IMG/VR virus record: IMGVR_UViG_2721755660_000001
From: a virus
Taxonomy: Duplodnaviria > Heunggongvirae > Uroviricota > Caudoviricetes
Direction: 5' to 3' (one strand)
Length of the DNA stretch: 64,000 nucleotides
Positions 1-3,000 of this stretch are shown in pieces (position 1 is the stretch's first letter; every line of letters begins with the position of its first letter). Made by a program: the position numbers.

Positions 1-3000
1 ACGCTGTTTTCGTTCACGACCCTAACGTTTCGCAAACCTTCCGCCGCGCCACAGCGCAGAAAGAGTTCCTCACTAAAGGCTTTGAAGACACCCGCAGCCA
101 GATTGATGCCGTAATGCGCAAGGAGCTTTCAGTATGACACCTGCCATGTATGAGCGCGTGCGTAACTACTTCGTTGATGCCGGGCTTACCACTGGCTTCA
201 TTGTTCAGTTGCTGGCATGGGACGACACAACGAAGTTAACCGACGCATTCATCGTGTTCCGGCCTAACGGCGGTACCGACATCCGAAATGACCTCGGATC
301 TGACCACTACGTGCTGGTGGATGTCATTTCCGCCAAGGATAAGCGTCGAGCAGCCGCTGAGAAGGCTCAGGAAATCATCAATTATGTCGAACAGAACGAC
401 ATTACCGACGAATGCCTTGGGCTGATTCAAAACCTCGGCAATGTGCCTGCACCTATCCTGACTGAAGAGGGCCGCCTGGTCTTCCGACTCCATTTCATGT
501 GCGTTTACGGCGAATAAACCCATCACCAACCCATCAGGCTGCCATCCGGCGGCCTTTTTTATTTGAGAGGTACACATGCAAGGCTGTGTTAATGATTTTG
601 GCAAGCTGATCGGGAAAGTAGCTGTGCTACGCATGGCCTTTGGCTGCCCCGACACAGTGCCAGCGCTTTCCGAGTGGAAGCGTCTCGGCGCTATGACGAC
701 TAAGGGTCTCGATTATTCGATGAACACCATCAACTCCGAGGCAGATGATGCTAAAGGGCTGGTGGAGAACCTGGTCAACAACATGGATCTGACGATCTCC
801 GGCGAAGGGGAGTTTCGCAAGTCTGATAAAGATAACGAGATTGGCGCATGGCGTCTGTCGAAGTACATCTTTGACGAAGTACAGGCTGGCCGTCAGCCTA
901 ATCTGTGGGTGCGTTTCGACTTCGCGGGTGAGAACGCCGGTACTTATATCCAGGGTTACATGAACACCACTTCATGGTCTGGTGACTTCGGTACCAACGA
1001 TATCTCAACTTTCTCCGGCGAGTGGAAGGTCTACGACGCCGACACTGTCGTGTTTGAAGTCGCTGATTCTATCGCGGCCACTGGCGTTGAAGTTACCCCT
1101 GCAACTGCATCTCTGGTCGTTGGCTCAACCCAACAACTCAGCGGCGCGGTTCAACCAACCGATGCGACTAACAAGGCGATCACCTGGACTACTTCGGCGC
1201 CATCCATCGCCACTGTCAGTTCAACCGGCCTGGTGACAGCAGTTGCCGAGGGCACCGCGACTATTACGGCTACCACTGCTGACGGTAATTTCGCCGACAC
1301 CTGTGCAGTTACCGTTACTGCCGCGCCGTAATCACTACAAAGGGCGGCGTGCTGCCCTTGATACTGGTTATGGAGAACGATATGACACCTTTGAAAGAAA
1401 TTGGCGAGTGCCTGATTGGTACTGGAGACAGTGAATACTTCTTCCGCCCATCATTCCGTAACATGACTCGGATCGGCGAACCAGAACATATCGTCCGCAC
1501 CTTCTATGCGCTGTTCAATGAGGATGTGGCAAAGATGCTTGAAGCGGCGCGCGAAATTCACAGTGCGATACCAGAGCATCAGCGCAGATTTTACGCCCAC
1601 TATTTCGGTGACGTTTCGCTGCCACGCTGGGCACTTGATGCAGCAGGCTCTGCCGCGTTTGTGCGTGATGCATTACTCTCGGCTATTAACGTCATTCAGT
1701 CCTGCTGTGACGAGGACGTTTCTGAACTGACAGGATGGCATGAGCCATCACGCACTGGACGGCGAACGTTTGTATGGCGCCGTGGCGCGCTGCCGCCGGA
1801 GAACCTTATTCTGATAGCTCAGTCGCTGATCATGCATGGCGTTATCGGACGGGCGAAGGTTCGTAAGTTGCAAAAGCACGAAAGCAAGGAAACGACACCG
1901 GAGTTCCATGCAACTGAATACATCATGGCGGCGCGAAACCATTTTGGGATCAGCAGGGAAGAGGCTGAAAACCTTACCATGACCGAATTCGCCATGATGC
2001 TTAACGCCAAATACCCTGACCAGAAAGGCTTCACCAGGGAAGAGTACGACGCGGTTATGGACGATGATGAACGGCGTTGGCAGGAAATGATGAAACGCGA
2101 AAATTAAAAAAAAGCTATATAGCCATTTTTAGTAGGGGGGATTTGGAGTAGTTCTATGATCGTTTTCATCTCTATCTGGTAGCATCCTTTCGAACTAATA
2201 GGAGATGTGAAAATGAAAAAAGTCTTTATCCTTGGATTGGGTTTATTATCTTTCTATGTCAGTGCCTCTGAATTTTCTGAGCAGGATTTAATCGAGTTAG
2301 GAAAAAAAGAAATCCGGACTGAAATCTCATTGCCAACATCTTTTTCACAGGAAAAATTTATTCCTGATACTCGTGACAATCCATCTTCTCGAAGTGGAAA
2401 TGTTTGCCTTAAAGTCTCTGGAAGAAAGAATGACGGAACTGCAATGGATCTAGCTGTCTACGGAGTGCACATAGCCACAAAAGGTGAACAAGCTACTTTT
2501 GGTGAAATTTTTAAATTTATTGGCGAATCTGAAATGCAAAGTTCAGAAGCCAAAGAATCTTGCAAATTTTAAATTCGCCATGATGTTATAATACCTCAAC
2601 ATCATTGGATTTCATTAATGAACCCGCTACGGCGGGTTTTTTTATGCCCGGAGAAAAGTGATGTCTGAAAAAGCAGGCGAGATTTATTACGACATCGAGG
2701 CCGATGTTTCTGGCTTGCTCAAGGCGCAGGGAAAGGCTAATAAGTCGCTCGACTCCATCGGCAACTCGGCGACCAATGCAGCCAAAAAGATGGGTGAGTT
2801 GCAGACGAATATCAACCGCGTCGCAGGGGCTATTGCCGCATCACTTGTTGTTGACTGGGGTAAGGCGTTTCTCGTTGCTGCTGACAACATGAGCCAGCTC
2901 AACGCGCGTATAGAGAGGCTTACTGGTAGCGCAGCGACAGCCTCTCAGACAATGCAGAGCCTGATGCGTATCAGTTCGGCAACTGGCGGTTCTCTTCAGG

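Follow-up and report, generated by a model that had tools for sequence, protein, structure and literature searches.

An apparently exchangeable slot in a prophage tail operon carries a gene for a small protein with a predicted export signal

Why does a small AT-rich gene stand between the tail assembly chaperone and tape measure (TMP) genes of a prophage, how is it expressed, and what might its product do there? The window analysed here is a stretch of 64,000 nucleotides of Caudoviricetes DNA (IMG/VR virus record IMGVR_UViG_2721755660_000001), in which the first-pass annotation had described this gene as a self-contained moron for a small secreted protein. The genes of the locus and their translation signals are as follows.

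1382-2107, + strand: DUF6246 gene, left flank (Pfam DUF6246, E 7e-73; phrog_791)
2104-2619, + strand: AT-rich cargo cassette, consisting of leader, CDS and 3' UTR (GC 0.36-0.41, vs 0.52-0.58 in the flanks)
2200-2204, + strand: Shine-Dalgarno AGGAG of the cargo gene, 8 nt 5' of the ATG, unchanged in 6/6 aligned alleles
2213-2572, + strand: cargo gene CDS, from the ORF list (ATG 2213, TAA 2572, 119 aa; RefSeq hypothetical protein WP_033817211.1)
2650-2653, + strand: TMP ribosome-binding site GGAG, with which the right-flank entry (2650-4988) begins
2661-4988, + strand: TMP gene, right flank (ATG 2661; Pfam TMP_3, E 4e-57; RefSeq annotation)

The cassette encodes a real, selected protein of 119 aa. 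The gene is under purifying selection (dN/dS 0.10-0.25; 0.06-0.21 if only the mature part is counted, between alleles with a dS of ~0.4), and the exact protein is found with its frame intact on 668 contigs of E. coli and other Enterobacteriaceae; a chance ORF is ruled out by dN/dS and conservation. The AT-rich character that had been noticed is real as well (GC 0.36 for 2108-2572, vs 0.52-0.58 in the flanking genes). The DUF6246 gene occupies the position of the tail assembly chaperone, and we rejected the possibility that the cargo gene is the frameshifted 'T' part of such a chaperone, because a stop codon and 105 nt separate the two. Its family is very small. A word-indexed search of 5.8 billion proteins returned only three near-identical clusters and a frameshifted variant of 79 aa (a -1 slip in the A7 tract at 2302-2308), and an exhaustive HMMER search of 1.84 billion representatives returned one cluster at 50% identity and the same frameshifted variant. 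No family was assigned to the protein by Pfam, NCBIfam or PADLOC; tblastn gave no match in phage records and chance-level matches only (E of at least 0.1) on plasmids, and a scan of species-representative genomes detected no relative. A literature search returned no paper on the protein family and, for DUF6246, only an unrelated genome paper.

How the gene came to lie at this site can be read from a comparison of 84 related phage loci. The site is empty in 12/84, where the DUF6246 stop codon and the TMP start are separated by 36-56 nt, so the cassette is indeed an insertion between the chaperone-position and tape measure genes, as had been claimed. Elsewhere the slot contains a 124-aa lipoprotein (61/84), the gene described here (9/84) or a third, membrane-anchored protein (2/84); in other words, other cargo replaces the 119-aa gene in 63/84 relatives. 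Homology to relatives with an empty site or a lipoprotein site stops at ~2103, and the last few codons of the DUF6246 gene vary with the cargo type. All three cargo types appear to be targeted to the envelope, by a lipobox (LAGC), a signal peptide and an N-terminal transmembrane anchor, respectively, and each contains two further Cys residues. Their base composition varies, with 36% GC in the 119-aa gene and 47-50% in the lipoprotein gene. The cassette CDS is 99.4-99.7% identical between loci that share only 89-95% identity in their DUF6246 and TMP-5' flanks, which points to a recent horizontal spread of the cassette. These comparisons support the view that the 119-aa gene is a genuine, horizontally mobile add-on gene in the tail operon.

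Does this make it a moron? Among the criteria of Juhala et al. 2000, in the part of PMC3594210 that restates them, we find extra DNA between genes that are adjacent in related phages (the 12/84 empty sites) and a base composition unlike that of the neighbouring genes; a terminator of the gene's own is not found, as the hairpin that follows the gene is a feature of the backbone. For the promoter that a moron should bring along, there are two candidate sites of moderate quality. The first moron described, HK97 gene 15, also lies between the tail chaperone and tape measure genes (PMC3594210). The likeness covers the slot itself, the deviant base composition, the coding of a small envelope protein and the absence from related phages (PMC3594210). 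Two differences are seen, however: HK97 gp15 belongs to the YebO family and resides in the inner membrane (PMC3594210), whereas a signal peptide that is cleaved off and a soluble alpha/beta domain are predicted for the 119-aa protein; and the terminator belongs here to the backbone slot. The moron reading therefore holds for a mobile gene of a putatively exported protein in the HK97 gene 15 position, and fails for the terminator. Taken alone, the 119-aa gene would be one more hypothetical prophage add-on gene in a textbook moron position.

The question then arises as to how the gene is expressed. The signals that bear on it are the following.

2077-2104, + strand: promoter-like TTGGCA-16-GAAAAT, candidate (consensus scan, 9/12 matches)
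2177-2185, + strand: extended -10-like TGgTAGCAT with no good -35, candidate (rough weight-matrix scan)
2580-2605, + strand: 3' UTR hairpin with TGtTATAAT (2584-2592) in its loop (RNA fold; not conserved in related locus L014)
2620-2643, + strand: intrinsic terminator of the backbone, with stem AACCCGC/GCGGGTT, loop TACG and seven T (scan and RNA fold)

The terminator that had been attributed to the gene is canonical (stem 2620-2639, T-run 2637-2643). However, the same hairpin and T-run lie directly 5' of the TMP ribosome-binding site in 84/84 loci, the 12 empty sites included, and since it is found whatever the cargo, it belongs to the slot and not to the cargo. In the alignment of the terminator, 98% of the cells are paired, one pair being A-U 13 times, G-C four times and G-U twice, and the loops differ. 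Rfam matches to istR and rsmX over this terminator were sub-threshold and were taken as chance. A second intrinsic terminator is present within the late operon, at 536-555.

On the promoter side, a TATAAT-like element had been announced upstream of the ORF. The consensus scan gave no good match to TATAAT there, and the sole perfect copy in the locus (2584-2592) falls 3' of the stop codon. A TATATA at 2116-2121 was rejected as a -10, the final invariant T and a -35 both being missing. The best promoter-like site, at 2077-2104, ranks in the top 0.015% of window sites with a rough weight matrix; its -35 is within the DUF6246 coding sequence and its -10 at the cassette junction. An equivalent TTGGCA-17-AAAAAT is present 5' of the lipoprotein cargo in related locus L002, the conservation of TTGGCA being constrained by the Trp-Gln codons that it encodes. 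With a terminator common to all relatives, and a best -35 that lies in DUF6246 and recurs before a different cargo, the description of the gene as self-contained is not upheld. The -10-like element at 2177-2185 is kept as TGgTAGCAT in related locus L013 and as TGaTAGCAT in L014, where the leader is only 72% identical overall. In addition, each cargo type brings a noncoding leader of 72-105 nt, vs 36-56 nt for the whole spacer at empty sites, which makes independent expression of the 119-aa gene in the lysogen plausible. In E. coli, AT-rich foreign DNA is often silenced by H-NS.

Alternatively, this could be an ordinary late gene with a lytic role, transcribed solely when antitermination by Q lets tail-operon transcription continue through it, and never independently; its exported product, acting late in infection, might then prevent progeny or superinfecting phages from ejecting into debris or cells already infected, a role proposed for T5 Llp, or modulate lysis. 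It is true that the gene is co-oriented with the late operon, that the promoter-like sites upstream are weak, that a Q antiterminator is encoded by the identical prophage in strain 154, that with 72/84 relatives filled the cargo is almost a core accessory gene, and that an exclusion role is discussed for T5 Llp (PMC9586334). Yet such a gene would hardly call for the long leaders, nor for the conservation of the stretch from the -10-like element through the start codon in an otherwise diverged leader. Moreover, the identical prophage already has a complete lysis cassette elsewhere (RefSeq annotation), and members of the wider family in Gordonia and Paracoccus phages are oriented opposite to the tail operon and so need a promoter of their own. 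We therefore consider the late-gene explanation unlikely.

In the scenario that we prefer, the slot would extend from the DUF6246 stop codon to the backbone terminator abutting the TMP ribosome-binding site, in a siphoprophage with lambdoid regulation. In the lysogen, transcription would start from a weak promoter (2077-2104 or 2177-2185), cover the gene and end at the backbone terminator, before TMP; in the lytic cycle, late transcripts antiterminated by Q would run on through gene and terminator alike. The slot, and not the cargo, would then supply the terminator and perhaps part of the promoter to at least three exchanged, envelope-targeted cargo types. A terminator supplied by the slot refines the picture of the moron as a self-contained unit of promoter, gene and terminator.

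What does the cargo gene encode? The protein divides into two parts.

2213-2266, + strand: predicted Sec signal peptide, residues 1-18 (rule check; cleavage between VSA and SEF)
2267-2569, + strand: mature domain, 101 aa, with Cys65 and Cys117 (predicted helix on a four-stranded antiparallel sheet)

The signal peptide reported earlier is upheld by a rule check, with recognizable n, h and c regions and a conserved V-x-A site. By this check, it consists of MKK, then VFILGLGLLSFYV, then V-S-A with S as the first residue after the cut; it has two Lys, a hydrophobic core at residues 4-16 (Kyte-Doolittle 2.5), V at -3 and A at -1. The cleavage site is kept in diverged alleles as V-N-A followed by A, and AlphaFold2 gives a pLDDT below 50 across most of residues 1-18. 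A lipobox ([LVI]xx[GAS]C) was looked for in the 119-aa protein and is absent, the sequence in the window being LSFYVSA, and a lipoprotein identity was rejected on this ground; related loci L012, L013 and L014 have F-C at residues 14-15 and no canonical lipobox. From these features we infer that the protein is exported by Sec and cut by SPase I after Ala18.

A comparison with the commonest occupant of the slot, the lipoprotein cargo (for example WP_016245416.1, a 'membrane lipoprotein lipid attachment site-containing protein'), is informative. The two cargoes have in common the slot, their length (124 vs 119 aa), an N-terminal export signal and a Cys pair; they differ in that identity is only 22% and that the 119-aa protein has no lipobox and a predicted SPase I cut. 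Both match phrog_2320, co-linearly, the lipoprotein with E 2e-32 and the 119-aa protein with E 0.005. No other match came out of the PHROG scan of the 119-aa protein, in which Cor phrog_1119 was absent at E up to 1. Aligned over their full length with hhalign, the two families give a probability of 88.5% (E 3e-6). Once the signal peptides are removed, the mature parts give a probability of 40% (P 3e-4), with a score of 24.8 that was reached by 0/300 column shuffles (mean 10.8, sd 2.1), so that homology of the mature parts is moderately supported. MAFFT aligns P41, S43, F44, C65, G75 and the C-terminal Cys of both families, and C65 and C117 of the 119-aa protein thereby face C65 and the C-terminal Cys of the lipoprotein family. 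A whole-library HMMER search with the 119-aa family recovered no member of the lipoprotein family. Altogether, the 119-aa protein and the lipoprotein cargo are probably related, the former being non-lipidated and having diverged very far.

Its divergence may have functional consequences. The family signature motifs DPxSAxF(R)N and VCGE(I/V)N(G/A)KNxxGAYxGF are not found in the 119-aa protein, which retains only P41, S43, F44, V64, C65, G70 and G75 of the motif residues, with D40, N69, N72 and Y77 replaced. The core motifs DPxSAQFRN and CGEINGKN are thus largely degraded, and the function of the protein may therefore differ from that of the lipoprotein. One could go further and regard the allele as decaying or neutral, a copy of the lipoprotein cargo that has degenerated and has no function left: most of the signature and the lipobox are gone, a frameshifted variant exists, and the family is tiny, with a single 50%-identity cluster among the 1.84 billion representatives. 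Decay is, however, difficult to reconcile with the low dN/dS of the mature part at such a dS, with a frame left intact on hundreds of contigs, with a cassette more conserved than its flanks, and with the conservation of the cleavage site, the Shine-Dalgarno and both Cys. We regard it as very unlikely.

Homology and structure prediction had been put forward as checks, and they were partly productive: the remote phrog_2320 match and a predicted fold were obtained, and Pfam, NCBIfam and Foldseek gave no family or significant match. With an alignment of four sequences, the AlphaFold2 model was too poor for use (pLDDT 51); merging the alignment with that of the lipoprotein cargo family raised the pLDDT from 51 to 74. 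The mature domain is then predicted to be cystatin/NTF2-like, with a single helix against a four-stranded antiparallel sheet, and Cys65 and Cys117 probably form a disulfide in this putatively periplasmic domain. Foldseek searches of the predicted structure against PDB and BFVD found nothing significant, and when PDB sequences were searched with the profile of the lipoprotein family, no match had an E below 0.36.

For the function of such a protein, several readings are considered. A virion structural protein was rejected on the reasoning that tails assemble in the cytoplasm, a compartment that would be closed to a Sec-exported protein. By analogy with known systems, our best guess is a periplasmic protein that blocks the entry of superinfecting phages. 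HK97 gp15 mediates superinfection exclusion in a manner that depends on the tail region of the incoming phage (PMC3594210). T4 Spackle (Sp) is a small periplasmic protein that binds a component of the incoming phage's tail tip and thereby prevents superinfection (PMC7677548), which makes it the closest mechanistic analogue of a soluble periplasmic exclusion factor. It differs, though, in being an early gene of a virulent myophage and not prophage cargo, and its target is the gp5 lysozyme domain, whereas no muralytic domain was found by Pfam in the TMP here. The lipoprotein Ltp of S. thermophilus TP-J34 targets the tape measure protein, according to the passage of PMC3952083 that cites Bebeacua 2013, and T5 Llp blocks the receptor FhuA (PMC9586334). 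Like these two, Cor (phi80, N15, T1) is a small exported or lipid-anchored protein that protects the cell from superinfection. For Cor phrog_1119, the match to the lipoprotein cargo is confined to the signal peptide (E 0.01-0.02), and the context of Ltp is different, its gene lying in the lysogeny module. The Llp gene of T5 adjoins the gene of the receptor-binding protein. In profile searches with known exclusion and defence families (Cor and the PADLOC models), the 119-aa protein had no match, with 0 PADLOC families, and PHROG lists no known function for phrog_2320.

Taken as a whole, the reading of the segment as an exchangeable slot cassette, from which the prophage expresses a periplasmic protein hindering the entry of superinfecting phages, has in our judgement somewhat less than an even chance of being right. 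After Sec export, the domain of ~101 aa would fold in the periplasm and hamper genome entry at the step where the tail tip and tape measure cross this compartment, leaving the outer-membrane receptor unblocked. Interference of this sort comes from the inner membrane with HK97 gp15 and from the periplasm with T4 Spackle.

A different benefit to the lysogen can be imagined. The gene might be a lysogenic-conversion factor aiding the bacterium in its animal host, unrelated to phage exclusion, for instance a cystatin-like inhibitor of proteases in the periplasm, or a factor of the envelope or of serum resistance like lambda Bor or Lom. Cattle or beef is the source of 3/3 complete E. coli genomes with the cassette, and such factors are often moron-encoded (PMC3594210). 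Against this, the protein has no sequence similarity to inhibitor families, and the cystatin/NTF2 fold occurs very widely and serves diverse functions. Conversion also leaves unexplained why family members are so frequently adjacent to TMP genes, including in phages of soil Actinobacteria and of marine or soil Alphaproteobacteria, and we judge it improbable.

This adjacency deserves attention in itself, because the cargo is linked to a widespread family outside Pfam that is strikingly often the 5' neighbour of TMP in unrelated phages. In 8/21 other IMG/VR viral lineages, family members lie immediately 5' of TMP genes, and 9/10 of the adjacent large ORFs are TMPs by Pfam, spanning three TMP families. 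In Gordonia phage Bunnybear, gp15 lies between the chaperone and TMP genes but on the reverse strand; in Paracoccus phage Pkon1, p57, which is fused to PG_binding_1, is oriented divergently from the TMP start. Given this reverse orientation, the two genes must be independently transcribed and require their own promoter. Two Klebsiella phages carry a family member just 5' of the TMP gene, one of these slots being bounded by lambda-type G/T genes.

It is conceivable, if doubtful, that these proteins form a large uncharacterised superfamily of exported phage proteins with a cystatin/NTF2-like domain, functionally coupled to TMP and blocking superinfecting phages. A lipobox, a signal peptide or a transmembrane anchor would precede the domain, and the genes would be kept immediately 5' of TMP in siphophages of Proteobacteria and Actinobacteria, their products blocking the TMP-mediated passage through the periplasm or cell wall. 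In this phage group, the slot would serve as a ready-made expression site, its promoter lying in the 3' end of the chaperone-position gene and its terminator in the backbone, and alleles would be swapped there as cassettes. Conversely, the chaperone/TMP junction may be a general hotspot for add-on genes, and adjacency to TMP would then be functionally meaningless. The family offers a concrete, testable candidate for a common class of proteins that block entry (superinfection exclusion), and proteins of this kind matter for prophage-mediated phage resistance and for the choice of therapeutic phages against Enterobacteriaceae.

Family members were also seen away from TMP, in the ogr-int gap of a P2-like phage, in the K-I gap of an HK97-like phage and beside cI. 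Outside the slot, they vary at the N-terminus, with transmembrane anchors or a signal peptide together with PG_binding_1.

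Between the gene at the tail assembly chaperone position and the tape measure (TMP) gene, the window carries the AT-rich 119-aa ORF noticed in the first-pass annotation, in the following setting.

1382-2107: DUF6246 gene, left neighbour (Pfam E 7e-73; phrog_791), at the siphophage tail assembly chaperone position
2200-2204, + strand: Shine-Dalgarno AGGAG
2213-2572, + strand: window gene, 119 aa, ATG 2213 to TAA 2572, the sole ORF in 2108-2647
2620-2639, + strand: hairpin of a canonical intrinsic terminator, followed by seven T (scan and RNA fold)
2661-4988: TMP gene, right neighbour (Pfam TMP_3, E 4e-57)

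DUF6246 is here a single 241-aa ORF, and we infer from gene position alone that its product is the tail assembly chaperone; farther upstream lie the genes of the tail terminator protein and of a major tail protein with an Ig-like domain. GC content is 0.34-0.40 over 2101-2600, versus 0.50-0.58 in the adjoining genes (by segment: leader 0.36, CDS 0.36, DUF6246 0.52, TMP gene 0.55-0.58).

The interval from the DUF6246 stop codon to the TMP start was measured in 84 related loci, namely 80 IMG/VR contigs found via DUF6246, together with L002 (a lipoprotein site), L003, L004 (an empty site) and L014 (a diverged allele of the window gene). Four states of this slot were found.

States of the slot in 84 related loci
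Empty: 12 loci; interval 36-56 nt
124-aa lipoprotein with LAGC lipobox: 61 loci; about 504 nt; GC 0.47-0.50
Window's gene: 9 loci; 536-553 nt; GC 0.36-0.38
97-aa protein with N-terminal transmembrane anchor and two Cys: 2 loci; 407 nt; GC 0.39-0.40

The same three main states recur among complete E. coli genomes (window type in three, lipoprotein in five, empty in one). The proposed insertion between the two genes is borne out by the empty loci, and the window gene is an insertion into a repeatedly used slot. Similarity to the other slot states stops at about 2103 and restarts at about 2620, and therefore the final DUF6246 codons vary with the cargo: the protein ends ...KREN-stop in the window (2096-2107), because of a single-base difference from the related loci L005, L006 and L012 (...ENLKKAI-stop), and ...KSAKKAA-stop or ...KSSKRKS-stop in lipoprotein-site and empty-site relatives, so that this Lys-rich tail seems dispensable. 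The third cargo, found at L085 (3724-4130) and in L086, is AT-rich, unrelated to the others and anchored by MLTPKQKAIIWALGIIFGVPTSIYG...; it had no match in PHROG or PADLOC.

Window-type CDSs are 99.4-99.7% identical where the DUF6246 and TMP-5' flanks are just 89-95% identical, which we read as a signature of recent horizontal spread. Three complete E. coli genomes, all of cattle or beef origin, carry the DNA region of the window gene at 100% identity and have its product annotated as hypothetical protein WP_033817211.1; the exact 119-aa protein is present on 668 contigs from E. coli and other Enterobacteriaceae, with variants in E. marmotae and Enterobacter.

The terminator, which had been described as the gene's own, is indeed canonical, but the same element lies directly before the TMP GGAG in 84/84 loci, every empty site included, and is therefore a feature of the slot; it belongs to the backbone, not to the cargo. 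Two stem forms occur (CCCGC/GCGGG and CCCACC/GGTGGG), as well as an intermediate with G-U, and the loops are free to vary; 98% of cells are paired, pair 6-15 being A-U in 13 sequences, G-C in 4 and G-U in 2. A slot-borne terminator with exchangeable cargo is worth recording. A second strong intrinsic terminator is found in the late operon at 536-555, between the tail terminator and major tail protein genes. In lambda, late transcription passes through terminators; the prophage carries Q, and the terminator at 536-555 would fit Q-dependent late read-through.

The question arises as to whether the cargo brings its own promoter. The TATAAT-like element placed upstream of the gene by the first-pass annotation was not recovered: a consensus promoter scan gave nothing within 2108-2212, and the sole perfect TATAAT (TGtTATAAT, 2584-2592, + strand) lies past the stop codon as part of a hairpin loop in the 3' UTR. 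Two other candidates were found. The scan matched TTGGCA-16-GAAAAT at 2077-2104, in the top 0.015% of window sites by a rough weight matrix; its -35 coincides with conserved Trp-Gln codons of DUF6246, a counterpart exists upstream of the lipoprotein cargo in L002, and in L004, an empty site, the -10 aligns with GAAAAG, without the final T. The other, by the same kind of matrix, is an extended -10-like TGgTAGCAT at 2177-2185, kept in the diverged allele L013 and as TGaTAGCAT in L014, though the L014 leader is overall 72% identical. All three cargo types bring a leader of 72-105 nt, which suggests that these leaders may hold regulatory content. The extended -10 at 2584-2592 is only about 30 nt ahead of the terminator, reads TGaTATGAT in L013 and is absent from L014; the scan also gave an antisense promoter-like site (ATGAAA-16-TATTAT, 2615-2588, - strand) at this hairpin. 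Conceivably, a tiny RNA or an antisense transcript is driven from here. Taken together, the first-pass observations are partly confirmed, ORF, AT-richness, signal peptide, insertion and terminator being present, the upstream TATAAT absent and the terminator not the gene's own; the first-pass interpretation is partly supported.

By a rule-based check, the signal peptide claimed earlier is present, with two Lys, a hydrophobic core at residues 4-16 (Kyte-Doolittle 2.5) and V-S-A|S; no lipobox was found in the 119-aa protein by rule check. The predicted mature protein has 101 aa and two Cys (C65, C117). The diverged alleles L013 and L014 retain V-N-A|A. Compared with the IMG/VR alleles L013 (91% protein identity) and L014 (82%), dN/dS is 0.10-0.25 at dS of about 0.4, and 0.06-0.21 for the mature part alone. 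The window gene is thus a real gene, for a protein whose export is predicted by rule; that it is a decaying allele is very improbable, as the selection data count against it. Residue 15 of the signal peptide (codon 2255-2257) is polymorphic, Tyr in the window and Cys (LSFC) in L012, L013 and L014, and the Cys15 form looks like a degenerate lipobox remnant. The CDS also contains an A7 tract (2302-2308), and a 79-aa database variant (P0004) is the exact product expected of a -1 slip in it; either a sequencing error or an on/off frameshift could account for this variant.

No family was found for the 119-aa protein in Pfam, NCBIfam or PADLOC, and its own family amounts to a single cluster (50% identity) in 1.84 billion representatives. 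The homology check proposed at first pass did yield a weak, co-linear match to phrog_2320 (E 0.005), the family that the lipoprotein cargo matches at E 2e-32. Profile-profile comparison of the two cargoes gave a probability of 88.5% (E 3e-6) with signal peptides and a score of 24.8 (P 3e-4) without them, which 0 of 300 column shuffles reached (mean 10.8, sd 2.1, maximum 20.6); independently, MAFFT aligned P41, S43, F44, C65, G75 and the C-terminal Cys. The window protein is therefore probably homologous to the lipoprotein cargo, with motifs mostly degraded and the lipobox lost, and the GC of 36% favours a foreign replacement allele over in-place divergence. In an AlphaFold2 model from the merged alignment (pLDDT 73.8, pTM 0.66), residues 23-35 are helical, there are four antiparallel strands, and a short helix lies at the C-terminus, a partly circular result because that alignment presupposes homology.

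Members of the lipoprotein family also lie beside TMP genes in unrelated phages. Gordonia phage Bunnybear gp15 (LIGGC lipobox; hhalign 98.4%) is encoded on the reverse strand, with the tail assembly chaperone genes on one side and the TMP gene on the other; 18 more Gordonia phage records match by tblastn, likewise on the reverse strand and at comparable genome positions, context being inspected in Bunnybear alone. Paracoccus phage Pkon1 p57, combining a signal peptide, PG_binding_1 and the family domain (hhalign 99.2%), is oriented divergently from the TMP start. Klebsiella phage vB_VIPKPNMC05 has a multi-transmembrane form between lambda-type G/T genes and the TMP gene. Just ahead of its TMP gene, Klebsiella phage ST16-OXA48phi5.1 (MK416013.1; L103, 2923-3321) has a 132-aa ORF, missing from the annotation, whose product clearly belongs to the family and carries a membrane anchor at the N-terminus (MMKDPGSATFDNVRF...AVCGYVNGKNSFNAYTG...SESCK). 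An IMG/VR scan with a distant-member alignment gave at least 484 viral matches. From the best 80 loci, 41 were used (match span unlike the common one, plus one common-span locus), and the 33 without DUF6246 formed 21 clusters at ≥60% identity. In 8 of the 21 clusters (10 loci, drawn from the best 80 of at least 484) the family gene sits directly 5' to a large ORF, the ORF being a TMP by Pfam in 9 of the 10, from three TMP families; with about 60 genes per genome, adjoining one given gene would be expected, on a rough estimate, in a few per cent. This family-level association is worth recording. Members occur at other classic cargo sites (ogr/int in P2-like SEN5, K/I in HK97-like Fraca, beside cI in a Thiobacimonas phage).

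HK97 gene 15 occupies the same slot, between chaperone and TMP genes, where the term moron was first used; its product is an inner-membrane protein, and the phage exclusion it confers depends on the incoming phage's tail (PMC3594210). The window gene is an uncharacterised newcomer to this known class of morons in the chaperone/TMP slot. Entry is likewise blocked by other exported phage proteins: Ltp targets the TMP (PMC3952083, citing Bebeacua 2013); T4 Spackle, which is periplasmic, inhibits the tail-tip protein gp5 (PMC7677548); T5 Llp blocks FhuA (PMC9586334). Because all slot cargo is envelope-targeted, the family is enriched beside TMP genes and some members are reversed, we tentatively propose, as the best reading, that the window protein may be a periplasmic entry-blocking protein. 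A purely late role in the lytic cycle appears unlikely, and we likewise doubt that the protein is a conversion factor for host interaction.

In strain 154 the corresponding element occupies a tRNA-Arg gene as its integration site; it is a prophage with lambdoid regulation and carries ren, NinG, Q and the lysis, terminase and capsid genes. In the window, the right arm of the prophage (8828-15744), where strain 154 has an IS3 insertion that the window lacks, and the adjoining tRNA gene contain:

8828-10852: tailspike with GDSL esterase-like domain
11002-11871 and 12892-13998, - strand: two Acyl_transf_3 acyltransferases
14524-15744: integrase
15858-15932: tRNA-Arg(CCT) gene, adjoining the integrase gene

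The acyltransferase pair suggests O-antigen modification as lysogenic conversion. A second mobile or prophage-like region of the window (36609-44211), which also encodes a TerB-like protein, comprises:

36609-39179: N6 DNA methylase
39239-40333: type I specificity-like subunit
40789-41038: tRNA cluster Met(CAT), Arg(TCG), Arg(TCT)
43678-44211: phage lysozyme
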